A stretch of 64,000 bases of DNA, from the NCBI GenBank assembly GCA_044892525.1, contig CM097886.1:85126001-85190000 (forward strand), in the 5' to 3' direction. Below are positions 2,177 to 27,850 of the stretch, piece by piece (position 1 is the first letter of the stretch; each line of letters begins with the position of its first letter). Source of the DNA: Schmidtea polychroa. Its lineage: Eukaryota. A model generated the notes under the pieces. The model saw only the letters and a list, made by a program, of their open reading frames with translations. It was not told the origin of the DNA and did no database searches. The position numbers and the translations under genes are program-made.

Positions 2177-2803
2177 TCACATGATCTCAAGGTTCGGAAT
2201 GTCTTGGTTGGTTGAATTCTGGGTCGGATGGCTGGTTGAAGTTGTTATCGTGGGGAGCTGGATTGTAACAGGCATTTGGTCAGGAGATAGATTTTGTTGC
2301 ATTTGGTCGGGTGGGTTTGGTTGTTGAAAATGTACTGCTCGTTTATGTTTATTTTTCGATCGTGGGTTCTTTCTTTCGTGTTTTTCGGATAGTGACTGGT
2401 TTCTTCTCCATGTTCGATGAATATCATACGCTTTCCAGATGACTAGTGCGCAGATGATAAGGGTTTCACTGATGGTAGTATAGAGTAAGACTTGGCTTTC
2501 TTTTACTTCCTTCTTCATGATGATTTCCTTCAAGGATTGTTGGGTGGTTTGTTCTTGTAAGAGAATTTCGAGCTGTTCGATTTTTTGGGTTTGTAGGTGG
2601 AGTTGCATTTGAAGTTTTTGCCAGACGGCTTTGTTCCAGCATTGTTTCGGGATGTAGTTGGAGAGCTTTCTTTCGCTTTTTAGTTTGGTTAACGGGTTTT
2701 GCTGTTTCTCGGGATTCTCCCAGAGTGTTGGGATTGGCTGCCACATGGGTATTCCGTTTATCGCTATCATCATTATTGTCACCAGGGTTGCTTCGAACCA
2801 CAT
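2177..2803 (-). CDS. Accessory 208-aa membrane protein (signal, coiled coil, TM, basic tail)
   Basis: MWFEATLVTIMMIAING; LQMQLHLQTQKIEQLEILL; TLIICALVIW; last ORF before the 3' LTR. Confidence 0.72.
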   Translation of the reverse strand: MWFEATLVTIMMIAINGIPMWQPIPTLWENPEKQQNPLTKLKSERKLSNYIPKQCWNKAVWQKLQMQLHLQTQKIEQLEILLQEQTTQQSLKEIIMKKEVKESQVLLYTTISETLIICALVIWKAYDIHRTWRRNQSLSEKHERKNPRSKNKHKRAVHFQQPNPPDQMQQNLSPDQMPVTIQLPTITTSTSHPTQNSTNQDIPNLEIM

Positions 2804-2858
2804 ACTGCTATACGAAAATTTTTATTTACAATTATTTACATTGATCATTCATCTTTAA

Positions 2859-3560
2859 TTATTGCCGGGTTTTCTTTTTACGGGTTTTCTCGGATGTTCT
2901 CATCACTCTCGTTTCTGCTTTTATTACTCGTTTTCTCAATTCGGGTAGTACTTTTAATTGTTTGTCTCTTTCGTCTAACTGTTGCCTTAGGGTTATTATT
3001 TTTTCTTTTAGTGCTTTTATTTCTTGTGTTGCTCTTTCGAGGTTTCTATGGTTCATTATCTGTAGAAAATCATTTTCCCTTTCCCCGTCTTCTTCGTTGT
3101 CTATTTCCTGGTATTTGTTGTTCATTCGTCTCATTATCTCACATTCTTTCTGTTTTTGGTGTAGTTGGAGTTGTAACTCTTTCAGGCTTTCTTGGTGTTT
3201 CCGTGCCTCGGTTTTCCAATAGTCACTAATCACTTCGTCGGCCTTTCGACTGGCCCTCTCCTGCCATAATTCTTCCGCGATCTTTTCCCAATTTCTCCCT
3301 CGCTTTCTTTGCTCGTGAAGCCATTCGTTTTCTTCCTCTACTTCTTTCTTTACTCCTTCTAACAAGATATATTCTCTTTTCAATACTTTAATCATTTTTC
3401 GATTATCTCTCCACCTTTCAACTAATCTTTCGTTTTCCTGTCTCTCTTCTTGTAATTCTTCCTTGATAGTTTTCTTCCTCTCCACTTCATCAACTTCAAT
3501 TTCTCCCTCTTCTAACTCGATTATAGATGTTATGCTGGGTTGTCCGTTTTCAGTGTTCAT
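2859..3560 (-). CDS. Accessory 233-aa coiled-coil protein
   Basis: ATG-initiated ORF, heptads, basic C-terminus. Confidence 0.78.
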   Translation of the reverse strand: MNTENGQPSITSIIELEEGEIEVDEVERKKTIKEELQEERQENERLVERWRDNRKMIKVLKREYILLEGVKKEVEEENEWLHEQRKRGRNWEKIAEELWQERASRKADEVISDYWKTEARKHQESLKELQLQLHQKQKECEIMRRMNNKYQEIDNEEDGERENDFLQIMNHRNLERATQEIKALKEKIITLRQQLDERDKQLKVLPELRKRVIKAETRVMRTSEKTRKKKTRQ

Positions 3561-3742
3561 TTTCTATAATATATACATAATTAATAATTGCGCTACAGTG
3601 CGGCTTATACTTATACATTTATATGTTATTTTATAATCAGGGTTACAGTCCCTTTCATACTTTTACTGTACCATTAATTTTTTTTTTTTTTTGGTTGGGA
3701 TACAGGTCCCGATTTTTATATTTTTTATCTTTCCTCTTATCT

Positions 3743-4780
3743 TTATACAAAGGTCTCTTCCTGGCCTACATATCCCTCATCGCTTTCTACTGACGTTTGT
3801 AATTGGAGTGCGATGGGATCAAATGGGATGTAGTACCGGGGAATCTGCGCTCTAAGTTCTTGCACTTCGTCTCTTAGTGCTCTTGACACGTTAAGTTCCT
3901 CGTCCAACAGGTATGTTAGATACCTGGTTTCATCGTCTCTCACCTCTATCTGTTTTTCTAGCTCTTCCGCTTTTTCGCCGTTTTCCCATTTCTTGATCTC
4001 TATCTCCAGATTTTTAAGATTTTCGTTATACATTTTCCTTTCGTTTTCTAACTTTTTGTTTTTCCCCGCCAGTACCATATTTCTCTGCTCCAGAGCTCCT
4101 TGGTATCCGTTGACATCTCGTTCTAGTTCTGCGACCTTATTCACCAGTTCTACGAGTCGTCCTGACTGTTGAAGTATCAGTTCTTCCATTGCGGCATTCT
4201 CGTGCTCCCTTATGGAGATTTTCATGGCTAGATGTCTTTCAAATTCCATGGCTTTGGTCTGCCATGTTTGGCTTCGGGCCGCAATCTTTCTGAGCCGTTT
4301 CAGTTCTTCTCTTATGACCAGATTTTCCTCCCATTTGCCTTGTTCGCTTTCGTATTCTAATCTCATAGGCAATTCTTTCATTTCTTTTTTCATCTCTTTG
4401 TTCTGCCGCTTCCAGTTTCGGGCTTCTGCCAATAGGTGATTCATTTTCCTTCCTTCCTTTTGTTTTTCTGCTTCTCGTTTTGTGTTTTCGTCCGTCAATC
4501 GTTTCCGTGCTTCCTGCACTAACTGTTTTAAATAGTGGCTGTGCGCTTCTTGGCGAGTGTTTTCCAATGATGCCCACTTAGAGGCTCTTTTGCATGCTTC
4601 TGCTTCGGCTCTTAAATTGTTTACTAACCACTGATATTTGTTATTCTCGTATTCCCTGGCCTCTTCGAGATGGTTGTGGGTCTGGTTCGTCAATTGTAAC
4701 ATTACTTTGACCCATTTTCCCTTATGGATTTTATTGACTTTGGTTTCGTGGTTTGGGGCTTCAGTTCCTTCTTGTGTCAT
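3743..4780 (-). CDS. Accessory 345-aa coiled-coil protein
   Basis: ATG-initiated long ORF, E/K/R/L-rich heptads; no family recognised. Confidence 0.8.
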   Translation of the reverse strand: MTQEGTEAPNHETKVNKIHKGKWVKVMLQLTNQTHNHLEEAREYENNKYQWLVNNLRAEAEACKRASKWASLENTRQEAHSHYLKQLVQEARKRLTDENTKREAEKQKEGRKMNHLLAEARNWKRQNKEMKKEMKELPMRLEYESEQGKWEENLVIREELKRLRKIAARSQTWQTKAMEFERHLAMKISIREHENAAMEELILQQSGRLVELVNKVAELERDVNGYQGALEQRNMVLAGKNKKLENERKMYNENLKNLEIEIKKWENGEKAEELEKQIEVRDDETRYLTYLLDEELNVSRALRDEVQELRAQIPRYYIPFDPIALQLQTSVESDEGYVGQEETFV

Positions 4781-5001
4781 CTTTGTCTAAATAATGATAT
4801 CATTAACTTAACGTTGTACGCTTATATCTGGTTTATTATTTATTTATTTTTATAATTCGTTATAGGAGTTGTTTTAGGAGTTTTTCGCTTAAGTTTACCT
4901 TTGGTAGATTTGGGGGGAATTTTTCTACACTACTATATAATATTTTACTGGATATATACGCCGATATTTACAATTTATTATATACAAAATTATTCGTCTC
5001 A

Positions 5002-6390
5002 CTACTCAGTCCTACTCTTCTCATCTCGCCTCACCGCTATTTTTATGTATATAGTGTCGTTTCTCGTCATGTCTTCTACTTTCCGCTGTAGGATGAAATT
5101 TGGTGCTCCAGTTGCTGGTCCTTCTTCTTCCAAGGGCCTTTGGTAACATACGAGGTTTCCCGCTGTATGGAAACTCTGTTCGTGTATACTTTGATAGTTC
5201 ATCATTGCGAGGTCTATTTTTGCTTTGAATGGCCATTCTATTAACTCGTCGTATGGCCCTTTGCACATCAAGAAGAATACTGAGAAATGCGTTCCGTATG
5301 CACTTCCATCCCCATTGGGGTATGCTTTCATTTTCATTTTATACCCGTTTTTCCATGAGTAGAATGCTGGACTTAGTAATGTTGTATCCTTTCCATTTCT
5401 CGCTCTCTGCATCTTCTCTTTTACTCCCGTTATTTTCCATATGTACGGAGCCGTAGGTATTAATTCGTTGAGGTTTAATTCGCTTACTTTTTGATGTAGT
5501 TCTTTCACCATAATGTTGCTAGTTTCTACTAGGTCTGTCTGTATCTTTGTACTTGTTCTCGCCTCTTCAAATGCTTCCTTTTCTTCCAATAGTTCTTTTA
5601 CCAACGCTTTTAGCGAGACTATTTCTCTTTCTAAGTTTTCGGTTTTCCTTTCGTTTTCCTGTAATACCGTTGACCATATTTCCGCGTGTGTTGATACGTT
5701 TTCTGCTAGATGTTGGGGTAATTCCCCTCGGTGTAATTGTTTCGGACATCCCCATTTTCCTAGCACACACGTTATCTTTTTTCTTTCACACTCTTTTAGG
5801 TGTTGAGCGAGTTTTATTACTCCGGGTTTATCGCATTTGTTGGGGCATTCTCCTCTGAATTCTGCGCACATTTTCTCCTCTTGTATGTTGTGATGTTGAC
5901 TGATTAGTTTCTTCCAGGTGTCGTTTTCTCCGCAATACTCGCATTTCTCTAGTCTTTCTTCACATCGACTTTGATGTTCTGCTTCTTCATTGACTTTAAT
6001 CTCTTCTTGGCAACGTTTGCATTGACTGATTTTATACTCACATTGCTCCATATGTTGCCTCACTTCCCATATCCCTCCTCGCCAATTACATGGGGTGTTT
6101 TTACATCCTAGGTTTGCATTCAACATATCCTTTACAGCTGCTTTATCTTCGTTTGTATCTCCCAAACTTGTTATCATTGTTTCTTTGCATACTGGGCACC
6201 ATTGTGGTCCCTTCTTTATTATCTCCTCTACGCATTCTCTGCACATTCTGCATCCACATCTGGTTTGGTGAGGTTCTCTTAATAAGCTCTTGCATATCCC
6301 ACACGTTACATGGTTGTGTATTCGAATTGTGGTGGACTTTCTGACTTGTTCAACAATTTCTTTGAATTCTTCTCGTTGTCGCTTATCCAT
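5002..6390 (-). CDS. Intronless full-length TRAF-family protein (RING, TRAF zinc fingers, coiled coil, MATH)
   Basis: CGICKSLLREPHQTRCGCRMCREC...CPVC; several CX3-4C..H..C fingers; YIWKI...LSPAFYS..GYKM...YPNGDG..GTHFSVFF...GPYDELIEWPF. Confidence 0.95.
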   Translation of the reverse strand: MDKRQREEFKEIVEQVRKSTTIRIHNHVTCGICKSLLREPHQTRCGCRMCRECVEEIIKKGPQWCPVCKETMITSLGDTNEDKAAVKDMLNANLGCKNTPCNWRGGIWEVRQHMEQCEYKISQCKRCQEEIKVNEEAEHQSRCEERLEKCEYCGENDTWKKLISQHHNIQEEKMCAEFRGECPNKCDKPGVIKLAQHLKECERKKITCVLGKWGCPKQLHRGELPQHLAENVSTHAEIWSTVLQENERKTENLEREIVSLKALVKELLEEKEAFEEARTSTKIQTDLVETSNIMVKELHQKVSELNLNELIPTAPYIWKITGVKEKMQRARNGKDTTLLSPAFYSWKNGYKMKMKAYPNGDGSAYGTHFSVFFLMCKGPYDELIEWPFKAKIDLAMMNYQSIHEQSFHTAGNLVCYQRPLEEEGPATGAPNFILQRKVEDMTRNDTIYIKIAVRRDEKSRTE

Positions 6391-6479
6391 TTCTATAATT
6401 ATATATATACATATATTCGTTACTGGTACAGTTTCGTATTTTTATTTACAGTTATTTACATTGCTATTTTAGGTTATAT

Positions 6480-6839
6480 TTATTGGCTGGAAGAGTCGGC
6501 CTCTTGTCCGCCCTCTTCCCTGTTGGTTAACCATTCTGACCAGTCTTCTATCTCCTCTCGCTCCATCTCTTCCGCGATTCTTATTAACTCCTCTTCTTGC
6601 ACCTGGCTGTATCGTGATATTCGGTCTATCTCTCGCTGCATTTGTTCTATTTTCATTCGTTGGTCTTCGATTATTCTTACATAATTGAAGCCTTTATTTA
6701 AACTTTCGACTAAGCTTCTTTGTACAGCGAGTCCTTGTTCCTGTAAATTCGAAATCACTTGAGTTAACATTGCACATTGTTGTTTCCACATCTCCTCGGT
6801 TGTTGTACTGTGGTTTACTTCCTCGCCTATTCGCTCCAT
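6480..6839 (-). CDS. Accessory coiled-coil protein, about 119 aa from ATG 6839
   Basis: ORF between the polyprotein and TRAF; heptad pattern and acidic tail. Confidence 0.65.
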   Translation of the reverse strand: MERIGEEVNHSTTTEEMWKQQCAMLTQVISNLQEQGLAVQRSLVESLNKGFNYVRIIEDQRMKIEQMQREIDRISRYSQVQEEELIRIAEEMEREEIEDWSEWLTNREEGGQEADSSSQ

Positions 6840-7007
6840 TCTTAATTTATATATACTTTTCAATCCTTATCTAATTTTATTTTCATATTAATTATCCCCA
6901 TCATTATATACTATTGATACCGCGCTTATATAAAAATATAGAATACTGTTATATAAATAAATATTTCATACTTACTTTTTACAATCTATATACAGTCATA
7001 ATCCTTT

Positions 7008-8020
7008 CTATATACGTGAGCTTGGAGGGCGCTGAGCATTCCAGGCCTCCACCCACTGTTCCTGCTTGATATTACTTGGTCGTTTTACACGATGTTGAAA
7101 ATTTCTTATTCTGGCCATTTCTAGTTCTCCGTGATGCCGTCTATCTTTGATTATTTTTATTGTCCCCCCCGTTATGATTAAAAAGGCCCCTGTTATTATT
7201 ATGCCGCTGATCCACATCATCTGTTTTATGCTTATAATTTCCGCTTTTTCCTTGCTCGTTATTGTTGATATTGCTTCTGTGCTTTTTAGATTACCGTCTT
7301 TGCCATTTCCTTTCATCATTCCTCGTATTCTTGCTATTTCCTCGTTCATACCTTCCTTTGCCATTTTTTGTATTTTCTCCATCTCCTCCTCGGATACATA
7401 ATTGTCTTGATGTTTCTCACTGTTTTTCTTGCGTTTTCCTTGCTCATCTTTTTCATCATCGATTTTTCTTTTCTTCCCTCTTTTCCCAGGGTATCGTCGA
7501 CATTCTCTCGCTGTATCTTTTCTCCAGATGCATATTGTGTATTCTTTTGGAGGTTGTTGCTGTATTACATATTGTAGACAGTCTTCACCCGGTCTTAATC
7601 TTGCGATGCAGACTTTGTGTTCTTTTCTTGGCTGGAGTTGCGTTATCACTACCTCACCTCCTTTTCCCAGGTGTACCTCCTTCCCTTTGACTTTCGTTAT
7701 TCTCTTTCCTTCTCGATTTCGGTATGCTTCTTGTATTCTTACTTCCGTTATTGGTTCTGCATCTTCATTTTTTAACACTAGTCTCTGATAAGCTCTAGAC
7801 ATACATCTTCCTAATATACACCTTTCTTTTAAATCCCATTCTTCTTTTAGATCCCATTGCTGCTCTTGTACTTGTTTTTTCTTTTCTTGTTTTAGTTCTT
7901 CCTCTTTGTTGTCCTTATTTTCCGTTTCTTTGGCTTCTTTTATCGTTCTCATTCCTCCCTGGGCTGTTATCATTTCCACCATTGTTAGTACGAGTATCAT
8001 TATCATCATATTTGTCTCCA
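7008..8020 (-). other. C-terminal type I membrane protein (signal-like segment, Cys-containing FN3-like ectodomain, TM, short tail)
   Basis: MMIMILVLTMVEMITAQG; VVITQLQPRKEHKVCIA; WISGIIITGAFLIITGGTI. Confidence 0.55.
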
Positions 8021-11000
8021 TTTCTTTGTTGGTAAAAAGTAGGCATACCCTCTGTTTTCCACTATTCGTCTTTTCTTCTTGCTTTATTCGGTTTCTCGGG
8101 TTATTTTCCTCTTTTTTCCTACTCGCGTCGTTATTTTCTTGATTATTCTCCTCTGATTTCTCTTTCTCTTTATTCCCGTTTCGACCTTTTTCATTATTAT
8201 CGTCGTCTTTATCGTCTTTATCGTCTTTATCTCCCCCGCTATCGTTTAAAATGTCGTCCTCGACATTTATATCATTCAACAATCTGCGGTATGCCGTTAG
8301 CACTCTGTTTCTTGCTAATTTTGCTTCGAGTTCGAACTCCTTTCTGCCTGTTGCTACATGTCTCTTTCTATTCCATTCTTTCACTAATTCTCTTAATTGT
8401 ATCCGACGATGTTTCCCGATTCGCTTTTGTTCGTTTAGATTCTGCGTGAATTTGAGATCTTCCCTGTTTAATACGATCATTATGATTTTCGGAGTTCCTC
8501 CTTTTGTTAGTGTATTTTTAACCATAGCATTTTCTCCGTTTTCGTAGAACTCATTTATATTTATTGCATATTTATTGCTTTGTGGTATTCTCCATGTTAG
8601 CAGCAACTTCATGGCTTCTAAGTTCATCCGTATCGTGTTCCATTGGAACTGTGACGTGTTTTTACAGATATTTTCTACCTCAGTTCTTGTAGCATTTTTA
8701 CAAATGAATCTAATCATTTCCAAGTTTGGTTGTATTGTTGCCCAATCCATGGTAGAATTTCCTTCGTTTGATCTTTCGTCAAGTCTCGAACCTGATTGAT
8801 GTAGTATATGTAATGTTTTCGGGTGTATATTTGTTATGGCTGCATACATCATTGCTGTTTCCCCTTGTTCATTTTTTGCATTAGATTCTTCTCCGAAGTC
8901 TCTGAGAATTCTTATGATGGTTATTGCTCTGTTCTCTTTTGCTGCTAAAATGGCTTGTTGTAATGGTGTTCTTGAGTCTTTTGTTGGTAAGGTGAATGCT
9001 AGTGGTATAAATGTTTTTATTTTTCCTATGTCTAGATTTGTGGTCTGATCTCTTGCGTAGGTGTGTACTGTTTTGGTTATTTTTGCTAGTATCGCTTCAT
9101 CGGATAGATCTTGCATTTCTTCAAAGAATACTTCTTTAGCCTTACGTACTACTATCTCTTGGTCGGAGTTTATTGTCTTTGGTTTACTTATTGTTGCTAT
9201 ATCGGTTATTGGTTGATCGACTTGTTCCTCAGACTCTCTTGCTTTTACTTTCTTCATTTTTATCTTTTTCTTGTTCGAACTGTTAATGCGTTCCTCTGCC
9301 GTTAGAACTTGAATAATACTTAGGTAGTTTTCTCGAATGTTGTTCATAGTTTCCATCATATGTAAAACACTCACGGTGTCCCAAAATTTTACTTGTACTT
9401 TATCGGTAAATTGAGATATAGCTTTTTCGAAGTTGGTAATTCGTTTTCTGATTAGTTGTTCGTCTTTGTGATTTGAGAATTTTATGCCACGTTGTAGTAG
9501 TTGATTTGGAATTTCGAATAGGTGATGTCCTCTCATCGCTTCTCTCATCAAGGTGTTTTCTCCTTTGGTAAATGTTTCGTTTATATCTACCATATAGTCG
9601 TTTTTTATCGGGTTCCTCCATGCAATTAGTATTCCAGTAATTGTTGTTAATTTCTCTTTGATTGCAGTTAATAGCCCGTCATACATGTTTCCTATCTCTC
9701 TATTATCCTCGTATGATATTAGATCTACTAAGATTATGAAGGCTTCCGTACTTTTCCCTTCGATTGCATGATGTAATGCATTTTTCTGGTTGTGATCTTG
9801 TGTGGTTATCTTTGACCCAGTTTCAAGTAATGCGATGATAATATCTCTAGCTTTATCCCGATTGGCTGCTATCATTAGTGGAGTGTAACCTTGGTTGTTT
9901 TCTTGATCTGTCGAAATGTTACAATCGCGAAATGCTTCAATTGTTTCTAATATCTGTTCGTTACTACCCACCTTTAAAAGCTTGTGCAGGGGTGTGTCTC
10001 CGTAATGGTCTGTGATCGTGAATAATATAGGCCATTGACTTTTAACTACCCTGAGCAATGGGTGTGTTCTTTCTCGGTTTGCATAATTTTCGATCATTGT
10101 TAGCAGACCTCCCAATATCTCAAAATCTAATCTGTCTTCTGCCCATCCGGGCATTTTAACTTTTACTTCCTTTATGATTTTCTCGGCTTCTGATGGTTGT
10201 AACCCTAATCGATTACCTGTTGGTTCGTTTATTTGCTGTAACATGTTTATTCTATACGTTTGTGATCTTGTCGTTAGTGTACGTCCTTCTGGCTGACTGG
10301 TGGCGGTTTTCGGAATTGGCTTACATCGTGCAACATTTACGTATATTGGTCTTGTAAAAGGGTTGTTCACTAATCGTACTCTTACATTAGTTTCTCCGAC
10401 GAATAGAATCTCATACGGCCCTTTACCGTTTCGTTGTAATTTTTTGGTGGTTCCTGGAATTAATTCTGGTGTTTCAATCATCACCCAATCGCTTGTTTGA
10501 AACGTATGCTGTTTGACGTTTTTCTTTCTATCATGTAACTCTTTGTAACTTTCTTGATAAAATTTTATATTCAATCCTGCGGTTTCCCAGATTTCCTGCA
10601 TTCTTTCCTTGAACTTAGTTACATAATCGTCTATTTCCATGTATTGTGATATCGGTGGCTGATATTCTAAATCCATTGGCATATTGCATTCTCTGCCGTA
10701 CATCAACTTGAACGGACTCATCTTTGTGGACGCGTGAATCGACATTCTGTAAGCCATTAGACATAATTTTATATATTCATCCCAGTCTCGTTGATGACGA
10801 TCGACATAATTTGATAACATTTGAATCAGTGTTCCATTGAATCTTTCTGTCATACCATTAGTTTGTGGATGGTACGGTGATGTTCTTAATTTTGCGATCT
10901 TGAAGTAGTTGGTGGGGAATTTTGTCAAATAATCTGTGATTACCAATATATATATATTTCCTCTATCTGATTCTGGTAGTGGACCGACTACGTCCATTGA

Positions 11001-20000: not shown

Positions 20001-21302
20001 TTTGTTATCGTTCATATTTCGTCGATTATTAAAGTTGTTCCCATTGTTCGAGTTGTTGCGTTCACTGTTATTCCCGTTTGATCGTCCTTGTGGTGGTTTG
20101 AAAATTTGATGCGCACCTGGTATAAACTGATTCATCTTTGGTTCATGATTATTGTTATCTCCATTTTCCGTTTTCACCGCTGCTGTTGCGATTCTTCCTT
20201 CCTCTTGCATGACATTCATTTGTGCCGGGAGGTGTAGTTCGCATCTTGTGGCCCAATCTATAGCTTCCTCTAGTGTTTTACACATTTGACATCCCACCGA
20301 GGCCCTTACCTCTTCTCGGCGTAGTCCTTCTATGAAGTACCCAATTAAGTTTTCCTCCGGCAAGTTTCCGTTCATGGCCTTCTTTGCCAATCTTCGCAAT
20401 TCACTTGCGTATAACGTAATTGACTCGTTTGCTCTTTGTTTTCTACTTGCCAGTTCACCTAACGCTTGATTTATCGGTTTGCTGGCTCCGAATGTTTTTC
20501 TCAAAAATGTTTTGATGTTTTCCCAATTGTCTAATTTCGTATTTCTTTCTTTTGCTTCCAGATACACTTCGAGTGCGCTATCGCACAAAAACAGAGGCAT
20601 TCGTTTACTAATTGCTTCGGATGTCCATCCACACACATCGATATAGACTTCAAAATTGGTTATGAACGTTGCCAACTTGTTCGCATTCCCGTTGAACGGT
20701 TCGCCTCTAAATTTTTCTTTATATTCGTCGGTTTTTGCTACATTCATCTTGATTGGTTCTTGAAATGCTAAAATTTCTTTTAAATTTTCTAATGATGTAG
20801 CTAAATTATGGATGGATAATTCTTCTGTTGACCCGGTTAGGTTGTTTGTTATATCGGATAGACTTTCTCTACTTCTAGATCGACTGGGCGTATGTCCGGC
20901 TGTGGGGTTTTCTTGATCGTATATCGGTGTTTTGTGGGGTCTTTTTGCTCCTTGTGATATTCCTCTCTGCTGCCTAAATGATCGTCCTCTTTTGAGTTGA
21001 TCTAATTCGTCTCCTGAAAATAATACGTCTCCTGGCTTACTTGAAGATCTAAGGTTGGGTTTATCCGTGATTTTCCTTTTACTCTTTTCTGTCTTTTCAC
21101 GTGGATTTTCTACGGTTAGCGTCTGCTGAATTGGTCGAGTTCGGTTTTGATATTGTCTTCCTTTGTGCGGGTTCTGAATTGCTTTTCCTGGGTTGTTTGT
21201 ATATTCTCTAGATTCCTCTTGAGCTGGTTCTGAATTGACTTGGTTGGATTGATGTCTACAATGAAAATATGATATCGTGTTGCCTTTGCTTACACGAATC
21301 AA
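7008..21302 (-). CDS. 4764-codon Gag-Ubl-Bcl2-Env-PR-RT-RH-IN-ANK-membrane polyprotein (first in-frame ATG at 20747)
   Basis: Uninterrupted ORF of 14.3 kb with the motifs listed in the sub-features. Confidence 0.95.
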   Translation of the reverse strand: MIRVSKGNTISYFHCRHQSNQVNSEPAQEESREYTNNPGKAIQNPHKGRQYQNRTRPIQQTLTVENPREKTEKSKRKITDKPNLRSSSKPGDVLFSGDELDQLKRGRSFRQQRGISQGAKRPHKTPIYDQENPTAGHTPSRSRSRESLSDITNNLTGSTEELSIHNLATSLENLKEILAFQEPIKMNVAKTDEYKEKFRGEPFNGNANKLATFITNFEVYIDVCGWTSEAISKRMPLFLCDSALEVYLEAKERNTKLDNWENIKTFLRKTFGASKPINQALGELASRKQRANESITLYASELRRLAKKAMNGNLPEENLIGYFIEGLRREEVRASVGCQMCKTLEEAIDWATRCELHLPAQMNVMQEEGRIATAAVKTENGDNNNHEPKMNQFIPGAHQIFKPPQGRSNGNNSERNNSNNGNNFNNRRNMNDNKQCRTCGKPGHWDRDCYRNANCNRCGRRGHTENICQSRGCFNCGQPGHISRDCRERSQQQRPPQRNNNYAPNPQRQSNPSEGKQMNVMQEISQMKQMMQQMMRPRQEQVPQQTQNIRMMRSTENLNNYEVQQHAQEWQRLQAEEERIKRERIQQRQEQPLRINMMRMVKEIKEQYCYNYGKNPRVVPMSEPEKPKETIPAAKKENSTTPLKGNQRIQKIFWEKIKDKIERENEQTKTEAEAENNENGKQINHLKHNMIRELDSEELTILENKKLKKVPRMRNLRINMMRTTKKVLSTDDDEDYVSSLGGEMLQLNENIDQLREKIGADEDERESDVTSESEDENIEMKLRKEREEAIKQVKEILPVVVRNQEFIDLIPYKRFLQKIMKLERNEKDLIPNEEKAIIKKYMEKMKQAETTRYVIKIGTSKGLERIWIKNAVTDELFDWIREHLGNSRKKEYLYQYQGEQIKPDMHLIDALIWPGETQILKLYKEKQPANIHEWAKDAKAEYDFNIKLKLEQIKQCTLRRNLDKLIKQIQEQVEDNWDLLIARRTPDMHELMSRLRDTELLRMSDWRTINLIHKYGRLKETQPQKLEITIWLPNEEKRRIKMTNQSTVDDLVTKINQEITEKVRSESSDGMIDDVVMMYDKIILRAEDDTSLSEMGMWDNHQIIRILPMDEFRTRDITYQKEIRDRMKTLYQKSVEIIEIHQQWLREKELQGKIKKLSVRSCRRTPWERTWNAENKEWEIRKGIFVETDIGEIESESEEEEDEPPKYEEDEIESTSDDESETDVTSESETETRHIHAMRKKEREYADMDSEEAMEAREREEKERYKQLGDILATGTKNQKRQVIALANIILKTSENIHNLREMAKAIEEYRQYNEWYPEQLEQIIRKWRNQEWAQDTQERYRIRVKYPDKSIEDTEVHPTTKIRELKKKLAYETPFHLQLFGKSLDDNADVGITPMRLGEINVLTMAETLGKPIKRKSKSSKPTKGSLSTPSPNKVASKTNETEEIEEIILEDSDEGAGERSPILVRWPTGAEIWTTSQPSTSYQQPNKLSIEEIIDNTTETETDEQFQRQKGPTKATPEGQTDKIIDEWNEWLRNNDSSLPRTDNERNPNYENTREAGTMMEKRAKGRPKKQGEKPEFKTREQLKQEQGQVRLEKLDKIVWDLKEAQPTIERGEKWIRELVKDMLIITNPQLRRLWQRKVASVDARQLWNTISGIIPKLIKEKTKTTKTDWEETRRVIEQLTLNANDDEHHLVVLTYLMYNLMGLAARKIPNKQFANHVEMTVTIIENTIEPHIIRAGGWKRLIQAPRKNEQERSMQIRLKKLLNELEWELPLKDPASRKASINSLMMTMMIWMLCTSGAAGFTIYDCDNSIIGERYSLRDIEECRQASPNKLDIVKKKVSYHVYQESDFIRTQARECVVSKKVLAYYCGQYSYSTLILPGLDKEIVPIQREDCKELFRTGAMRIRDGVTIHGQSGMIKTESIYVAGRVKSTDGSCNGGTYTIRGEVISGVVVIESYTVELKEYEAQFDANNYQMKTNPACRATENVCRTGISTIIYEANTQKCRLQLLKSALFNEVKGEIYENEDDDEENGNVRMRNGKPVPPSPKEKRLTTQKTPTALITDDPDIGMRFIREKETTKCDSIVYRTNYAGIYMSRQVIDRAVGKVATEDVKLYLYANNKMDFLFHRGQTTMQKVYYDLIQNDCSLNKEILKTKLAIAITHPDNTMPSLPLPDGHFGRMVGEVMYTYACTKTFARLPRKPTIPPGKCANELEISYKGRNRFVQPVTRIMNPIGFYPNTFNCSNAYGPLYEKPDGKWIMLPVKTEVQEPKKFGLIELATEQDFKPIDVSKAGMYSPEDLETARLNVLFPARRESILSNMVTITGGTNFQSGPNYELLLSPDHFQQATSNMMKAMWGRFLVFGQMMAGILGIILIIQIVRVILTQMLACFDIYKREKKVNWKLIVGFLPFLAKTMVLHGHSKDIHRIKRLIKILTKIKGTDEEVGRRFRKTMYDEATRTQLKKNKPKFLDRFRNRSNSSDSDDDDNGNDKYPYPSRNPNEKPIETAPYWEKEKTNTWIANGSYVPPDIVGQQTALTMTQNMYPQLPSQPGMNYMPTRRTKSVDQADDVRTIAVMSSPGGAAVTVMIQINGKETSAMIDTGANVSAIAINQIPSKCWKDIEQTTIHIIACSKETVDVVGRWWTTLRYQDNEIETYLAVIPKLSEPCIIGTDLMPELFKEVVIDLTTMCLKDKMGRICKMNAIIRCPEKIIVPAKSQMICQIKVDAGMEGEVIFEPSKSFEKRRELPLAREIITINEDGEIPINITNFEEEDKIIYENERLGRLTPMIDIELPKITNETTKADELWIIDSTLLTEKEKERLQQLLIEYKDIFAISDLDLGACDVTLHAIPLIDETPIALRPYKLAEKQKEIAEAEVQKMLDAQVIEPSCSPWQFPVVMVKKKDGTQRFCIDYRKLNAVTKRDTYPLPDINEMLLMLQGAAYFTSLDLKSGYWQIKVKEEEREKTAFTLGRDLYQFRKMPFGLTNAPASFQRCMNFVTHGIKQCMVYIDDLLIYSATFEQHLEDIRNVFVRLRQWKLKLKPSKCDWAKEKVTFLGHIVSAKGKEPDPRNLEKIKTCPAPKTVTQVQEFLGLCGYYRKFIKNYAGIAKPIQELVKKDISFIWGAEQQKAFETLRDKLIEAPILVHPDFKKPFLLATDASGYAAGAILGQLDEEGKERVIGYYSRTFKKHEKNYSVTEREALAIIQAIKHFRYLLWGHEICITTDHQPLVWLGQHKEASSRLMRWAMQLQEYSPFIKFKAGRANANADCMSRFIFPDLVDHEMQRICLMVAEDLDFCQLRKDQQEDTELKQIIEYVKTGKAEVYGKDQKLKEHMDKHRHRYIIEKDWLLIMDGEKRLMCIPENRRKDLLTQYHDGRLGGHMSSKKTLARMKQKYFWPTLTEDVTEWVKNCITCATRKNTGTKWKAPLKPMPVPAEPMTMISMDVVGPLPESDRGNIYILVITDYLTKFPTNYFKIAKLRTSPYHPQTNGMTERFNGTLIQMLSNYVDRHQRDWDEYIKLCLMAYRMSIHASTKMSPFKLMYGRECNMPMDLEYQPPISQYMEIDDYVTKFKERMQEIWETAGLNIKFYQESYKELHDRKKNVKQHTFQTSDWVMIETPELIPGTTKKLQRNGKGPYEILFVGETNVRVRLVNNPFTRPIYVNVARCKPIPKTATSQPEGRTLTTRSQTYRINMLQQINEPTGNRLGLQPSEAEKIIKEVKVKMPGWAEDRLDFEILGGLLTMIENYANRERTHPLLRVVKSQWPILFTITDHYGDTPLHKLLKVGSNEQILETIEAFRDCNISTDQENNQGYTPLMIAANRDKARDIIIALLETGSKITTQDHNQKNALHHAIEGKSTEAFIILVDLISYEDNREIGNMYDGLLTAIKEKLTTITGILIAWRNPIKNDYMVDINETFTKGENTLMREAMRGHHLFEIPNQLLQRGIKFSNHKDEQLIRKRITNFEKAISQFTDKVQVKFWDTVSVLHMMETMNNIRENYLSIIQVLTAEERINSSNKKKIKMKKVKARESEEQVDQPITDIATISKPKTINSDQEIVVRKAKEVFFEEMQDLSDEAILAKITKTVHTYARDQTTNLDIGKIKTFIPLAFTLPTKDSRTPLQQAILAAKENRAITIIRILRDFGEESNAKNEQGETAMMYAAITNIHPKTLHILHQSGSRLDERSNEGNSTMDWATIQPNLEMIRFICKNATRTEVENICKNTSQFQWNTIRMNLEAMKLLLTWRIPQSNKYAININEFYENGENAMVKNTLTKGGTPKIIMIVLNREDLKFTQNLNEQKRIGKHRRIQLRELVKEWNRKRHVATGRKEFELEAKLARNRVLTAYRRLLNDINVEDDILNDSGGDKDDKDDKDDDNNEKGRNGNKEKEKSEENNQENNDASRKKEENNPRNRIKQEEKTNSGKQRVCLLFTNKEMETNMMIMILVLTMVEMITAQGGMRTIKEAKETENKDNKEEELKQEKKKQVQEQQWDLKEEWDLKERCILGRCMSRAYQRLVLKNEDAEPITEVRIQEAYRNREGKRITKVKGKEVHLGKGGEVVITQLQPRKEHKVCIARLRPGEDCLQYVIQQQPPKEYTICIWRKDTARECRRYPGKRGKKRKIDDEKDEQGKRKKNSEKHQDNYVSEEEMEKIQKMAKEGMNEEIARIRGMMKGNGKDGNLKSTEAISTITSKEKAEIISIKQMMWISGIIITGAFLIITGGTIKIIKDRRHHGELEMARIRNFQHRVKRPSNIKQEQWVEAWNAQRPPSSRI
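8330..10200 (-). other. Two tandem ~340-aa modules, each containing ankyrin repeats
   Basis: YGDTPLH, QGYTPLMIAA, NQKNALHHA; DSRTPLQQA, QGETAMMYAA, EGNSTMDWA; matching C-terminal INETFTKGENTLM / INEFYENGENAMV. Confidence 0.85.
10270..11440 (-). other. Integrase with HHCC, first D and E, GPY motif; catalytic core internally deleted
   Basis: YHDGRLGGH...CITC; ISMDVVGPL; TKFP joined directly to TNYFKIAKLRTSPYHPQTNGMTERFN; KGPY. Confidence 0.88.
11500..12780 (-). other. Reverse transcriptase and RNase H
   Basis: RFCIDYRKLN, LDLKSGYWQI, MPFGL, YIDD at 12285-12296; TDASGY, EREALA, TDHQPL, NANADCMSR. Confidence 0.95.
13230..13580 (-). other. Aspartic protease
   Basis: AMIDTGANVS (DTG at 13506-13514) and CIIGTDLM. 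Confidence 0.92.
14050..15950 (-). other. env: Envelope glycoprotein, class III fusogen of chuvirus/mononegavirus type, with internal signal peptide and TM anchor
   Basis: Signal LMMTMMIWMLCTSGAAG|FTIYDC; ECVVSKKVLAYYCG; GSCNGG; CDSIVYRTNYAGIY; FGRMVGEVMYTYAC; CANELEISYKG; TM FLVFGQMMAGILGIILIIQIVRVIL. Confidence 0.8.
16060..16520 (-). other. Bcl-2-like helical domain
   Basis: About 150-aa helical block ending EPHIIRAGGWKRLIQ (BH2-like W/HIxxxGGW); degenerate BH1-like region TRRVIEQLTLNANDDEHHLVVL. Confidence 0.6.
17085..18760 (-). other. Three putative ubiquitin-like (beta-grasp) domains at about 18530-18760, 17980-18235 and 17085-17285
   Basis: Each ~70-80 aa with an N-terminal beta strand, a T(V/I)xxL helix and a late G/Q/D-x-x-L-x-D pattern, e.g. 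YRIRVKYPDKSIEDTEVHPTTKIRELKKKL...LFGKSLDDNADV. Confidence 0.5.
19845..20747 (-). other. gag: Gag: capsid-like region plus three CCHC zinc knuckles
   Basis: PFNGNANKLATFITNFE...MPLFLCDSALEVY; CRTCGKPGHWDRDC, CNRCGRRGHTENIC, CFNCGQPGHISRDC. Confidence 0.92.
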
Positions 21303-21974
21303 TCATTCCTTTTTGCCACATTCAAGCACAGACACCGTTTTAGGGCCTCTGTTATACTTCTCTTCATTTCCCCTCATACACTTCTTCGCGGAATATAATT
21401 ACCCATCAACCCATATTTTTCGTCGATTTTAAATTATCTATTTGGGGTAGTAACAATTATCTATATGGTCGTATAAATTATCTATAGTTATCATTTATAA
21501 TATCGATAGGTCGTCGTCAGTTGCTGCTTATTACCTCCCATATTTTCTTAATCCTTTTACGCGGTTCCGCTATTTTACTTAATCTTTCATCTCTATTTCC
21601 CCTTATTTGGTTCTACTCTGTAACCAAAACAAAATTCGTTTAACCGGTTTAAACCAAAAAAATTCTGTAGAACTTTGTCTACTCATCTGGGATCCCTTTT
21701 AATTAATTAATCACCTTCCTCTTTTACTCATCATTTATTCTCACTTATTCTTTATTTTCATTATCTCTTTAATTCATTTTCCTTTTCAGTTTCTCTTTCT
21801 CACTGGAAAAAAAAATTTCATTATTACCTCCCACGAGCTCGTTTAATCCTTTCTAAATTCAAATACCATATTTCAAACTCACTTTGCTTCTAGCTAGCTT
21901 TAATATTCCATCTCACTAGTAATTTAAATGTTATCAACTTGTAGCTTGAATGCTATCTCACTATTACTTTAGGC

Positions 21975-22660
21975 CTTTACGACTGGCTGGCACTTTTCAA
22001 CAGCTCAATCTTCTTCTCCTGACCGGTTGGACTATTCAACAACTCGATCTTACGACTGGCTGGCACTATTCAACAGCTCAATCTTCTTCATCTCCGAACT
22101 GGCTGGACTTTTCACAGCTCAGTTTTAATTTTTCCTGGCCGGCTGGACTTTTCCAACAGCTCGGCCTTAATATCTCCGACTGGCTGGACTTTTCACAGCT
22201 CAGTTTTAATTTTTCCTGACCGGCTGGACTTTTCAACAGCTCGGCCTTAATATCTCCGACTGGCTGGACTTTTCACAGCTCAGTTTTAATTTTTCCTGAC
22301 CGGCTGGACTTTTCAACAGCTCGGCCTTAATATCTCCGACTGGCTGGACTTTTCACAGCTCAGTTTCAATTTCCCTGACCGGCTGGACTTTTCAACAGCT
22401 CGGCCTTAATATCTCCGACTGGCTGGACTTTTCACAGCTCAGTTTTAATTTTTCCTGACCGGCTGGACTTTTCAACAGCTCGGCCTTAATATCTCCGACT
22501 GGCTGGACTTTTCACAGCTCAGTTTTAATTTTTCCTGACCGGCTGGACTTTTCAACAGCTCGGCCTTAATATCTCCGACTGGCTGGACTTTTCACAGCTC
22601 AGTTTCAATTTTTCCTGACCGGCTGGACTTTTCAACAGCTCGGCCTCAATATCTCTAAAC
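21975..22660. repeat. 80-bp tandem array (about 7 clean units plus degenerate copies), each unit made of two ~40-bp halves
   Basis: ATCTCCGAC recurs at 22172, 22252, 22332, 22411, 22491, 22571; core GGCTGGACTTTTCA(A)CAGCTC alternates with two fixed linkers. Confidence 0.95.
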
Positions 22661-23232
22661 TCTGCATGCTTCCGTTCCTTTTCTGTCTTTATTCTATACT
22701 GTCATCTTCCTATTTTTACTTTTATTTGTCGACTTAATCTGTACCGCTTTGGAAGGTTTCCCCTTTCCCCCCTTGCTTAAAACGCAAAACGATCGCATTG
22801 ATCCATTTCTACATTGGTATGGTGATCAGCCATACCGCAGAAACTTTTCAATATTCGCGATGGTACCTCGCCTTACATCTCTTACTCGGGGTGATCGGTT
22901 GTCCCTTCCCAAATGGTTCCAATATCGTACCTCCCGAAGGTGGCTCGGTTTATTCCCCCTTTAACACTATGATGGGACTAGTTCCACTTTAAATAATCAA
23001 TTTAAATTTTTAAAATGCCCTTTCTTCATGGTGAAAATTATAACAACACAAATCAATTTATAACTTCGTATAATGAATACACAAAAAGGATTTATTAGTT
23101 ATTTACTCCACATTACAGATAATATATGCTATCATTATAAAACATTACCGAATTAAATCAGAACAAAAATATCAAAATGTTTAATCTAATTGTCAATCAT
23201 CCAATTTCCCTCACCGAGCGACGATCGCATAC

Positions 23233-23712
23233 CTAACTGAAGTAGATGGTGTGCTTCTCTTTTATTACACATGTGCACATAGAACAACGGATTAAACCGG
23301 CGGCGCATTCGTCACAATGGCTAAGGTGCCCACAAGGTAGAATCAGAATTTTGACAGGTCGCATCTTGCAACTGTTACAAGTTCTCAAGGCCGCTGCTTT
23401 CTCTACTATTGATGTTCGTATCCGCTGAGACAGAGTTTTGACTCGTTCGCGTAACCTCACATATTCGATGTTCAGAGCGGGGTCGTCGAGACGTTGCTGA
23501 AACCATTGGTAATGAATAGACAAGTCGGTATCGGTATTTGTTGATCCTAATCTGTCGGTTAGAAAGTTTTGTTTGGATATCAGCGGTGCGTTGTGGCTTT
23601 GTTGTTCTAGCAGTTCTATTTGTTTCAGTTTTTCTCTTAATGTTTTTATTGAATCATTTTCTATTTCGATGAACCGGCTTAGCTGTTGTAGATGTTGTCT
23701 AGCGTCTGACAT
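23233..23712 (-). CDS. 159-aa coiled-coil plus IAP-type C-terminal RING protein (no BIR)
   Basis: CNSCKMRPVKILILPCGHLSHCDECAAGLIRCSMCTCVIKEKHTIYFS* has the IAP/MGRN-type RING spacing and terminal xxFS. Confidence 0.85.
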   Translation of the reverse strand: MSDARQHLQQLSRFIEIENDSIKTLREKLKQIELLEQQSHNAPLISKQNFLTDRLGSTNTDTDLSIHYQWFQQRLDDPALNIEYVRLRERVKTLSQRIRTSIVEKAAALRTCNSCKMRPVKILILPCGHLSHCDECAAGLIRCSMCTCVIKEKHTIYFS

Positions 23713-24163
23713 ATCTAAATGAATGTGTTGTTATTATTTGTTCTTACTAGTATTAGCAATAATATTATTACGTTGTATTTAATATTCGTTTCTCTTTTAT
23801 TTGTTATTGTTTCTAGCTTTCGTATTTTATTTAGTCTTTAACAATCCCCGTCGTATTTTTGACTTTAATCATTTAATTTTATTGTCATTACTTTCTTTTG
23901 TCTCCCCTTTTTAATTTAATAAATTAAAATTAAACAAAGTAATTAATTCCCGTTTCCTTCTCTCATCATACTCTATCATATACATTCATACTCATTTAGG
24001 TTCGTTTCATTCACCACATGCTCTATTTCAAACTCAGACAGTTCGTATCATTTTATTGCACTATAATTCGTTTCAACCCCGATTCCGTTTTTATCATAAT
24101 TAATTAAAATGTTAATCTAACACATCATAACACAAAATTAGACAATCAAACAAATCAATATAC

Positions 24164-24724: not shown

Positions 24725-25489
24725 CTACGAAAATGCTTCTCCTTCTGCGAGCATCTCGTCGATGTCAACGGGCAACCGGCGGTCTTCGAGGAATTTGATA
24801 CTGTCGGCCGGAACTACCCGGAATACTTCCTTTGTAGGGATGGAATGGGTAACTGTAATTTCCTTGATAGTCGATTTGGCTGCAGATAACGATGCTTCAA
24901 GCGCGGCCATGGCATTTCTCCGCTTCTGATTTTTTTCCGAACGCGTCAGCCGCTTACGCTTTCGATGGGGGAGTGTAGCTTCTGCTGGGGGCTGAATGAG
25001 GTGTGGCACGAGTACTGGAGCCAAGATAGGGTCCGATGAACCGCCAGCCATAGGTCGATAGCCCGAAAGAACTGGGGCGGGAATTGGCGGCATTTGTGGG
25101 CCATGCCCTTTACAACTGGATGTTGATGAGGTTTCAGCTAATTTGTGGTGCATTGGGAACACGTTAGTCCCATCTTGTATCGGGTACTCGCGAACTCGCT
25201 TTGCTAGTTCTGATTCGGAATACACCTTGTGCAGTGCCTCTGATTGGGCCTTTATGGTTAGCCTCTGGCACCTGCTTTCTTCCAGGAGACTGTCACGGCA
25301 GTGCTCCAAACGCAGAATCTTGCTCTTCTCCTCCTTCATTTGTGGTGGGGAGAACCACGTTCCCTCATAGAGGTCAATTCTCTTCTTCAATTCCCCGATG
25401 TACAAGTGGAGCTGTGCGATATCGGCATTTTTATCAGCACAGGAAAAGCAAGGTCTGAGGGTTTTCCCGGAACTGGTTGAGGTATTCAT
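24725..25489 (-). CDS. LTR-encoded 254-aa protein: CxxC plus coiled coil, Pro-rich segment, basic NLS-like stretch
   Basis: ATG-initiated ORF preceded by TTAACAATTTAG; PCFSC then heptads; HRKRKRLTRSEKNQKRR; no family recognised. Confidence 0.72.
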   Translation of the reverse strand: MNTSTSSGKTLRPCFSCADKNADIAQLHLYIGELKKRIDLYEGTWFSPPQMKEEKSKILRLEHCRDSLLEESRCQRLTIKAQSEALHKVYSESELAKRVREYPIQDGTNVFPMHHKLAETSSTSSCKGHGPQMPPIPAPVLSGYRPMAGGSSDPILAPVLVPHLIQPPAEATLPHRKRKRLTRSEKNQKRRNAMAALEASLSAAKSTIKEITVTHSIPTKEVFRVVPADSIKFLEDRRLPVDIDEMLAEGEAFS

Positions 25490-27775
25490 CTAAATTGTTA
25501 AGAAATTTTCATTTTTAAATTAAGAAATTCACTGGGGTATTATTCATATTTTCGGAAAACGGAATTTAAGATCTTCCGACCAAGTTATCCAAGAGTGGCC
25601 TACCAATCTACCCCGTCGGCAAATTCTCACCTCCATGCACTCTCAAACATCCAAACTAACCCATGTAATCATTACTACTTTATGAGAAGAAAACGGGCTT
25701 CATGAAAATAATTCATTATGCTAGCTTTTAGGTTTACTTTATGGGTTTGACTATTTTTAACTACTGCATGACTGTTAATTCGTTACTATGAACGCTATTA
25801 TCTTAATTATCGTTGTTATATTTTAACAATTATATTTTACTCATTTTGCTGCTACGTCATTAAATTCTACGCGTGCTGTATGATGAACGGAAAATCGGCA
25901 ATCACCGGGACACCCCGTCTTGTATGTAGACCCCTCGGGTTTGTAAGAAAATCATAATACTCTCGCCTAAATTTTTATCATGGATTATAACTTAGTTATT
26001 TCAAATTTAACGCCATAAACATCGTCATAGCGACGCTTAAATCGGGCGCAGTTATGTGTTCATTTGATTATCTATCTCTACCATCAACTATCGACGGGTT
26101 CGTTACGATGCATGTTGGTGCATTTAACTAGCGACTTGCACACTGACGGAAAAGAAGATTCTCGTCGCACTGCCATTTTCTCTGACGCAATCTAGTGGTC
26201 TACTAGCAGATACAAGTTTACGACTCTCTCCCTATGGTTAGGTAATAATGATATCCACATGTGCACTGTGACCTAATCTGAGTGTGATGCGTGTGTACAT
26301 GTGGGCGAGCGATTAATAGAGGTAGAGTTGTAGATAGATGCTCCAGTCGAGACGGACACTCAGTTGGGGTGTTCAGAACTCAAGAAACTCGATTGTGTGA
26401 GTGACTTGCGGATTCAGTAGATAAAAATTAACTCTATATTCTAGATTTTCGATATTAGGTCGACTCACGATAAGACCACTCAATACACTCGATCGACTGC
26501 CGCCTTCCTCAATCGACTCATTAGATGACTTTATCAAATTATCAGCCGATTTTCCCCGTCGAAAATTTATCTGGCCCTGGGCAACTAATGATTCTCCTAT
26601 CGCTATTGATATCTTCACTCGGACTCACGGCAAGTAATTTATTCCCTTATCAAAAAGTTTGTTTACTTTCCCATTTTAGACGAGCCGCTGTCAACGTCAA
26701 ACCAAACTTTATCAGATATTCAATGTCAAGCTAAAGTCTAAATTAGTCAATGAATGGGTTTACTCGCTAATGTCCCTGCAATGTACCTCTCGGGATTCAA
26801 TTTTTAAGTGCTTAGCAGAACTTCCGGTGAAAACTCTAACAATTCATCGTCCATCCCTACTCAGACATCTATCGATATTCAACGGAAAAGCAAATTTTCC
26901 TGACAGTAACGAACTACTGATCTCAATCCGAAAAATTGTCTCCGACTTTGGAAAGTTACATTATTTGCTCTGAAACTCCGGCGTGAAAAAAAAAAACGAA
27001 AGATCCTCTATCAGATCGCGCTCGATGTGAGAAATTCCATTTTCAACAGTATTCCACCTGCGGAGTCTCCTCACCCCTCATGACCCACCCAAGAAGGCAA
27101 TCATCTCTGCCGCCGTTCTTGCATCGTCATGAGGGACCGTTCGACCCGTTTTCACAAAATCAACATTTAATATACAATTTATGAATAATAAAATGAATGA
27201 ATGAATCAAATAACAGCAAATGAATCAATAAAAATAAATGAATCAATAAAGCTCACCCGGCGACCCTATCATTTGGACTCCAAGTATGATGTTATTCATT
27301 CCACACAACCGCAGCCTCATCATACCCTTGGTAGATCTCTCATATGATAAATATCCTTCTCTGCAAATATCACATTCTCATTTTCAGCATCTTCGGGATT
27401 TCTTATGAAGGTCAACCTTCCCACTGTCGCGTTCTCTACCGTGGTACATTTCCAACTCGTCCACATCATACTGGGAGCTCTCAGATGGTACAGTCGCCGG
27501 CACCATGAAGAAAAGGCCATTTGTATTTCAATAAATTTATTTTTCGAAATGAGTTTTGTTTTTCATCATTAATAAATTAACCAATACATATAAATCAATC
27601 AGCCTACCGATAGTTTCAAAAACTGGAACGAAATCGAATTTAAACTAAAGGTAAGTTCTGAAAATCTCTGGAATTAGCGTTTGCGATTCTAGTCCTGAAT
27701 TCGGTGAAATATCTGAAGTCTATGCTCTGTAATCGTGAAAAATTAAAAGTGGTTCTAAGTTTTTTCTAAAATTTT

Positions 27776-27850
27776 ACCTGTAATCGTGAAAAATTAAAAG
27801 TGGTTGTCGTCTAATTTTTCACGTTACATATATAGTATTTTTCGTCCAAT
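27776..27850 (-). promoter_or_regulatory. Candidate LTR promoter (inverted CCAAT, TATA) followed by a short leader and 5' splice donor
   Basis: ATTGG at 27846-27850, TATATAT at 27828-27834, CAG|GTAAAA with GT at 27777-27776; same at 1368-1442 in the 3' LTR. Confidence 0.45.

Follow-up and report, generated by a model that had tools for sequence, protein, structure and literature searches.

How can a mobile element express many cargo open reading frames (ORFs) while the ~27-kb RNA that serves as its genome stays intact? The question is raised by a 64,000-nucleotide stretch of Schmidtea polychroa DNA (assembly GCA_044892525.1, contig CM097886.1, positions 85,126,001 to 85,190,000; hereafter the window), in which a single Ty3/gypsy-type retroelement fills the minus strand from ~28354 to past the window start. 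Eight long ORFs lie between its long terminal repeats (LTRs), all on the minus strand: A, B, the polyprotein, C, D, E, F, and G. A preliminary description of this DNA had proposed that the seven accessory ORFs each start just after a 3' splice acceptor and are either joined in cis to a short LTR leader, as in complex retroviruses, or resolved by spliced-leader (SL) trans-splicing. Our sequence analysis indicates that the seven AGs are very probably functional 3' splice acceptors, and we lean, at nearly even chances, toward alternative cis-splicing of a short LTR leader onto the cargo ORFs.

All seven acceptor contexts were present on the minus strand exactly where they had been described, with the G of the AG at 25490, 23715, 6841, 6393, 4787, 3564, and 2808 (ORFs A to G) and with 0, 2, 1, 2, 6, 3, and 4 nt, respectively, separating AG from ATG. 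TAG occurred within 6 nt before the ATG of six of the seven accessory ORFs, compared to 20 of 135 other ATGs in non-coding parts of the element (P = 6.5e-5); the proportions for internal ATGs and for those of the host flank were 38/464 and 75/1014. A comparison with shuffled spacers, which had been suggested as a check, bore this out: 3000 dinucleotide shuffles of the 50 nt ahead of each ORF predicted 1.12 such sites vs. the six seen (P = 7e-5), and the looser YAG gave P values of 2e-4 to 7e-4 against shuffles and non-coding ATGs. Since the 6-nt window had been picked after the data were seen, we added an acceptor score trained on the host, with weights from only seven host introns (44–59 nt long, three of the seven acceptors ending in TAG) that leave a 2143-codon BRR2 frame and an A49-like frame both open. 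By this score, the seven AGs ranked 1, 3, 6, 11, 19, 38, and 42 among 358 non-coding AGs (Mann-Whitney p = 1.4e-5); against the 57 local AGs, p was 2e-4, and five of the seven were the top AG in their own spacer. The AG before ORF C had been called weaker and did score low, as did the ORF B acceptor at 23715. A hand-set acceptor filter, passed by 21 of 743 YAGs, was not relied on, as its thresholds were also chosen after the data were seen.

AG-free runs of 13–43 nt precede all seven acceptors, and six of the seven accessory ORFs have a decoy ATG 18–47 nt upstream, always 5' of the AG. Splicing would discard these decoys and make each ORF's own ATG the first AUG. An acceptor-like AG also occurs in the host flank, 8 nt before the ATG of a BRR2/SNRNP200-like gene and after 40 AG-free nt (38438–38490, minus strand); this gene of 2143 codons and four introns thus carries a candidate SL or 5' untranslated region (UTR) splice site and provides a built-in control.

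Under the favored cis-splicing reading, one transcript would start ~25–30 nt past the LTR TATA box, and a moderate donor in the 5' LTR (27777 is best placed; another LTR donor may serve) would be joined to one of about eight acceptors, leaving the unspliced RNA as the genome. The messages would share poly(A) sites, which would lie behind ORFs B and G and in the 3' LTR, and the front part of each 3' spacer would be a 3' UTR. An acceptor before each downstream ORF, as cis-splicing in complex retroviruses requires, is present at the sequence level. The CAG/GTAAAA sequence of the candidate donor was also present as described, with its GT at 27777, 50 nt past TATATAT (27834–27828), the sole TATAWAW-type box in the LTR. 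It is the only AGGTAA in the LTR (chance rates per 100 nt of the element are 0.03 for AGGTAA, 0.10 for AG/GTA, and 0.17 for AG/GTR) and fits the consensus at 7/9 positions, compared to 5–8 for host donors, which suggests a site modestly beyond chance. The predicted leader is free of ATGs (gap 27829–27589). The farther an acceptor lies from the LTR, the higher its score tends to be (rho = 0.67, n = 8, one-sided p = 0.04), a weak and composition-confounded trend that would be expected if the sites compete for one donor. From the motifs, their positions and enrichment, and the predicted fold described below, we infer the start site, junctions, poly(A) use, PUF binding, and U1 control of this model. 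We favor it because it offers a single control point for keeping genome RNA, has wide precedent, follows a donor-first rule, and suits shared poly(A) sites. In the published sections drawn on here and below, the env of Tor3a is spliced from the LTR transcript (PMC4402516), and an Echinococcus LTR donor is cis-spliced to an SL acceptor, donors being said to out-compete the SL (PMC4558846).

Between the TATA box and the donor lies a predicted hairpin (−16.3 kcal/mol, z = −7.3, 0/200 shuffles) whose core is longer than any other perfect inverted repeat with a loop ≤60 nt in 1948–28355. The usual spacing from TATA box to start site is 28–33 nt. The predicted start at ~27806–27801 would then fall in the hairpin loop, so that the hairpin would form only in read-through of the 3' LTR. 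Folds that include U3 reached −16 to −18 kcal/mol (−17.8 for read-through) vs. −3.9 to −5.9 without U3, and in the ensemble, U3 read-through pairs donor positions −3 and −2, which are freed in short-start RNAs. In a foamy virus, an R-region donor upstream of the poly(A) signal is bound by U1 at the 5' LTR and blocked by structure at the 3' LTR (PMC3694450). The modeled hairpin suggests that the donor here may also serve poly(A) control: it may hold back poly(A) use in the 5' LTR, and in the 3' LTR the U3/R hairpin may mask it. Further into the LTR (27156–27520, minus strand), a 66-codon ORF (27520–27320) is followed by a donor at 27256 that fits 7/9 positions and by the element's most U-rich 100 nt. 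A 10-nt match to the planarian SL exon at 26468–26477 and 61–70 (minus strand) was dismissed as chance, with three matches at ≤1 mismatch where 2.4 are expected.

For candidate 3' ends, we ranked 103 hexamers (102 in the element and one in the host) by downstream U content. The top three (2090, 23096, and 23185) outranked the host BRR2 signal. These three occur only at the ends of the A–B and C–G clusters, so they would close each cluster rather than each ORF, which fits shared 3' ends. AATAAA was rejected as proof of internal cleavage, as it is at chance level in the six 3' non-coding stretches (7 seen vs. 6.7 expected) and the predicted U3 (27870–28300, minus strand), which is very A-rich, holds 20 copies that must be read through. 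The sequence UGUAHAUA occurred nine times in five 3' spacers vs. 0.72 expected (0/4000 shuffles) and nowhere else on the element's sense strand, and seven of the nine lie 14–30 nt after a stop codon; the motif was noticed through repeat family D7, so its enrichment is post hoc. Planarian poly(A) sites lack upstream UGUA in the sections drawn on of PMC5068929, which disfavors a CFIm poly(A) element, and UGUANAUA is the consensus for PUF proteins, of which planarian Pumilio is required for neoblasts (PMC5855632). On these grounds the motifs are read as putative PUF sites in 3' UTRs. They do not discriminate cis- from trans-splicing. The ORF B stop is directly trailed by a donor-like GT at 23232, with a second at 23214 (23214–23235, minus strand), and the polyprotein stop likewise by the donor at 6975; such post-stop donors could shield nearby poly(A) sites via U1.

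Several observations weigh against cis-splicing from the LTR. Donor 27777 ties with five others, all 7/9, among the 131 GTs before ORF A. A 27-nt block is repeated 51 nt later, both copies ending in an acceptor-like CAG (that of donor 27777 itself ranks 12/358), so the nearest partner gives a host-sized intron: at 51 nt from the donor, it is within the host range of 44–59 nt and could absorb the donor. Both LTRs retain this unit, and the packaged RNA behind this copy was therefore presumably unspliced there. Reaching ORFs C–G takes introns of 21–25 kb that skip stronger donors and acceptors, and the spacers of 55–221 nt in the 3' cluster fit flatworm operons equally well. In partition-function runs, the donor GU itself was not clearly more open in short-start RNAs, and for that reason we treat a hairpin masking switch as a lead only. 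The earlier proposal of a ~25-nt leader ending at 27778 and spliced to every ORF thus stands as to the existence of the donor, whereas the case that this donor feeds all ORFs is weaker than stated; it had overlooked the acceptor copy 51 nt on, the five equal donors, the stronger donor 6975, and the hairpin.

The cis and SL alternatives originally put forward are still the best two, although the sequence fails to separate them. It is possible, if rather unlikely, that the 3' cluster C–G, and perhaps all of the ORFs, forms an operon in which the host SL is trans-spliced at each AG and upstream 3' ends lie in the spacers. The premise that a flatworm host possesses SL trans-splicing held up, as SL genes are present in Schmidtea (PMC10899757), and the neighboring host BRR2 gene shows the same AG-before-ATG layout. 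In the nematode element Cer1, a subgenomic RNA is SL1-spliced (PMC3315495), and in parasitic flatworms, 597 partial-SL loci have been described at repeated mobile elements, for the most part LTR and LINE elements. The spacers before ORFs C–G (168, 89, 221, 182, and 55 nt) are within a 300-nt flatworm operon criterion (PMC12582326), which the A–B and B–gag spacers (1012 and 2485 nt) exceed, and the spacing peak in Macrostomum is ~100 bp (PMC8629364). AATAAA ends 13–48 nt before four of the five acceptors, GTRAG is missing from four of the five inter-ORF spacers, and PUF motifs follow the stops as they would in separate 3' UTRs. However, the spacer AATAAA is at chance level, absent from the E–F spacer, and without U-rich DNA downstream; the strong donor 6975 lies 135 nt ahead of the ORF C acceptor; and RNA destined to be the genome would need to avoid about eight cuts, each independent of the others. 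The SL ends in AUG, yet this AUG would be in frame with just three of seven ORFs (2.3 by chance), and the other four would gain overlapping upstream ORFs of 11–113 codons. Since flatworm acceptors are often used by both cis- and SL splicing (on average 66% of SL sites; PMC12582326), a mixture of the two is plausible. In its most far-reaching form, which we likewise regard as doubtful, the retroelement would have adopted host operon grammar, with five to seven cargo genes (RING and TRAF ubiquitin-signaling genes included) freed from a ~27-kb transcript by the SL, PUF-controlled and stem-cell-tuned 3' UTRs, and a U3/R hairpin switch protecting the ends of genome RNA.

We consider it improbable that C–G are driven by an internal promoter located where the polyprotein gene ends, with donor 6975 cis-spliced to their acceptors and the LTR donors serving only A, B, and gag-pol. 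That donor matches 8/9 positions, is one of seven such sites in 26.4 kb, and lies upstream of all five acceptors; TATAWA occurs at 7014 and 6992, and internal promoters are known from foamy virus (PMC3694450) and for the env of Oikopleura Tor3b/4b (PMC4402516). A start 28–33 nt past 7014 would nevertheless leave a first exon of ~6–11 nt, TATAWA 6992 would start transcripts beyond the donor, GTRAG shows no excess in the spacers (1 vs. 1.74 expected), and the two TATAWA sites are the only sign of a promoter. Slightly more improbable still is that no splicing takes place; the AGs would then be chance occurrences or left over from gene capture, and the ORFs would depend on promoters of their own or on re-initiation. 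Only seven sites are involved, the pattern was defined after inspection, the spacers are AT-rich with TATA-like runs before C, D, and F, and the B and C acceptors are weak. Against this, P is ~1e-4 to 1e-5 under several nulls and the host-trained score. The nearest TATA-like runs are merely 12–19 nt from the ATG and were rejected as promoters, as start sites would fall inside the ORF; together with the decoy ATGs, which oppose scanning or ordinary 5' UTRs, they count against simple internal promoters.

The region ahead of gag may hold an eighth acceptor for the cis-splicing reading. The acceptor-like AG at 21256 is weak and would rank 54. The 508 nt from this AG to the gag ATG contain no ATG vs. 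6.3 expected (P = 9e-4), and no ATG occurs in any frame from 21306 to 20747. An SL AUG joined at 21256 would be out of frame. Three of the 19 leader-region donors scoring ≥6/9, including the 8/9 donor 21714, have a phase-matched upstream ATG, and a short first coding exon for the polyprotein is possible. The coordinates of these and the other features are collected in the table.

Table. Positions of the features of the retroelement within the window, in order along its sense strand
Feature	Position	Strand	Basis or remark
5' LTR	26408..28354	-	Minimum extent; match to 1-1947
Predicted core promoter: inverted CCAAT (27850-27846) and TATA box (27834-27828)	27828..27850	-	Motif scan
Hairpin across predicted U3/R border	27780..27827	-	12-bp perfect core 27823-27812 / 27796-27785
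Candidate major donor CAG/GTAAAA, GT 27777	27772..27780	-	Its CAG also acceptor-like
51-nt unit ending in second copy of 27-nt pre-donor block	27727..27777	-	Repeat; acceptor rank 13/358
AATAAA, candidate LTR poly(A) signal	27536..27541	-	236 nt after donor; 6/103 for downstream U content
Putative acceptor 25490 and ORF A, 254 aa, no family	24725..25491	-	ORF list, Pfam, acceptor score
Putative acceptor 23715 and ORF B, 159 aa, C-terminal RING	23233..23716	-	Pfam zf-C3HC4_3, E 6.6e-7
Poly(A)-like hexamers 23185 and 23096, U/GU-rich downstream	23030..23190	-	Ranks 2 and 3 of 103; closes A-B cluster
80-nt tandem array, ~7.5 copies	21977..22655		Between ORF B and gag
Leader zone: 8/9 donors 21882, 21714; strong acceptors 21803, 21687, 21618	21618..21885	-	Splice scores
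177 open codons in polyprotein frame before first ATG	20748..21278	-	Acceptor-like AG at 21256
Polyprotein, 4579 aa	7008..20747	-	Gag, CCHC knuckles, Env-type fusion protein, protease, reverse transcriptase, RNase H, integrase, ankyrin repeats
Strong donor AAA/GTAAGT, GT 6975	6970..6978	-	Heads 3' cluster; 8/9; one of 7 such sites in 26.4 kb
Nine PUF-type UGUAHAUA motifs	2823..6994	-	6994, 6460, 6450, 6411, 4986, 4972, 3577, 2840, 2830
Putative weak acceptor 6841 and ORF C, 119 aa	6480..6842	-	ORF list, acceptor score
Putative acceptor 6393 and ORF D, 462 aa, TRAF-like (RING, zinc fingers, MATH)	5002..6394	-	Pfam
Putative acceptor 4787 and ORF E, 345 aa, no Pfam family	3743..4788	-	Pfam, acceptor score
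Putative acceptor 3564 and ORF F, 233 aa, no Pfam family	2859..3565	-	Pfam, acceptor score
Putative acceptor 2808 (second AG 2805) and ORF G, 208 aa	2177..2809	-	Pfam, acceptor score
ATTAAA, U/GU-rich downstream, ~140 nt before 3' LTR	2025..2090	-	Rank 1/103; closes C-G cluster
3' LTR, cut by window edge	1..1947	-	LTR comparison

The LTR pair (26408–28355 vs. 1–1947, compared within the window) is 99.95% identical with one gap, indicating a young insertion. Its LTRs enclose Gag followed by protease, reverse transcriptase, RNase H, and integrase, the Ty3/gypsy order, and among solved structures the reverse transcriptase best matched that of Ty3 (E 1e-48 to 1e-47). The internal region is at most 24.5 kb and the whole element at least 28.35 kb, as the 3' LTR runs off the window. 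Inspection by eye gave no clear primer-binding site or polypurine tract, the window, which starts inside the 3' LTR, fixes neither the far end of the LTR nor a target-site duplication, and a tRNA scan found no tRNA in the 64 kb. An Env-type fusion domain (PF24664, E 6e-72) occupies polyprotein residues 1869–2208, before the protease. Relative to foamy-virus integrase, the integrase core has an in-frame gap of ~45 residues near 10885–10905 (minus strand), despite the near-identical LTRs; this copy was probably inserted by the enzymes of another copy or damaged after insertion.

Exact look-up matched none of the eight element proteins. Bcl-2-like (E 0.022) and ubiquitin-like (E 0.04) matches in the polyprotein were both below cut-off, no dUTPase match was found in it at E up to 1, and a Pfam scan found no BIR in any of the eight proteins. 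MATH was found only in the separate ORF D, not in the polyprotein. An atlas search with ORF A gave an uninformative best score of 0.83. For ORF D, a word-based search returned 12 matches at E up to 1e-20 with 23–29% identity and no close relatives, and a HMMER search returned 6326 at E up to 0.001. Three of the best 150 of these 6326, picked for co-terminal N-ends and 39–42% identity, all share the ORF D start Met, which is uninformative on the SL because the ORF D AG is out of frame with the SL AUG.

Elsewhere in the window, an Rfam mir-753 precursor at 61600–61661 (minus strand, E 1e-15) lies in the host flank; we take this family to be planarian, and hence the host as well. Two apparent, diverged last-exon copies of an RNA polymerase I A49-like gene lie at 48485–48721 and 50277–50500 (minus strand). 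A DNA transposon of ~1 kb at 47062–48048 is bounded by terminal inverted repeats of 89 nt and carries an ORF for an ISXO2-like transposase. At 41900–43735 (minus strand), we noted broken remnants that look transposase-like and gave a match to the Spin-doc zinc finger. An intronless 236-aa ORF at 59597–60307 (plus strand) had no Pfam match and no AG shortly before its ATG.

By its match to the family description in PMC6431247, the element is assigned to the Burro-type giant Ty3/gypsy elements. Few LTR retrotransposons are larger than those of the Burro family. Burro1, according to a second-hand account in PMC13465017, aids stem-cell survival via a captured anti-apoptotic gene. The PUF clusters suggest a link to neoblast regulation, in view of the need for Pumilio cited above. 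Both the family and spliced subgenomic RNAs of related elements are already known; our literature search found no Burro transcript structure and no SL-resolved LTR polycistron, which Lee et al. 2026 and Grohme et al. 2018 may already cover. Cis-splicing, if true, would mean retrovirus-grade splicing complexity within a gypsy lineage, and SL resolution would be a new route of gene gain for a mobile element. The exact splice-site coordinates given here can be tested in public planarian RNA-seq.

According to the sections of PMC6431247 drawn on, Burro/GYPSM1 elements of Dugesiidae share with the present one a planarian host, accessory ORFs, and a single giant polyprotein in which Env, in frame, follows Gag and precedes protease, as well as three CCHC knuckles, ankyrin repeats, and TRAF/MATH. 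An internal region of ~24 kb and the Bcl-2-like and ubiquitin-like matches, which are weak and below cut-off here, would be further common features; tandem repeats are also drawn on the Burro maps. The family reaches 25 kb internally and >30 kb in total, whereas the element here lies in part beyond the window, and the Burro polyprotein of ~4,900–5,100 aa compares with 4579 aa plus 177 upstream open codons. Unlike the Burro family, the present element gave no BIR or dUTPase match, and its TRAF is a separate ORF downstream of the polyprotein; it is inside ORF1 in Burro1 and upstream in Dugesia tigrina. This sets the element apart from Burro1 proper, in which ORF1 carries both the TRAF and the BIR motifs. 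The Burro section of that paper is silent on how accessory ORFs are expressed. Known flatworm SL operons resemble the 3' cluster in that their ORFs lie on one strand, ≤300 nt apart, and an acceptor directly precedes the ATG (PMC12582326, PMC8629364), but they consist of host genes, whereas a retroelement also needs uncut genome RNA. The hairpin and donor parallel prototype foamy virus (PMC3694450) in layout only, R being predicted here; unlike that virus, the element has a Ty3-like reverse transcriptase and about eight acceptors over 25 kb, with no Tas-like protein or internal promoter shown. The gypsy-type elements Cer1 of C. elegans (PMC3315495) and Tor of Oikopleura (PMC4402516) also have subgenomic RNAs, which are cis-spliced, SL1-bearing, or internally promoted; each makes one subgenomic product, compared to the seven ORFs with their own putative acceptors here.

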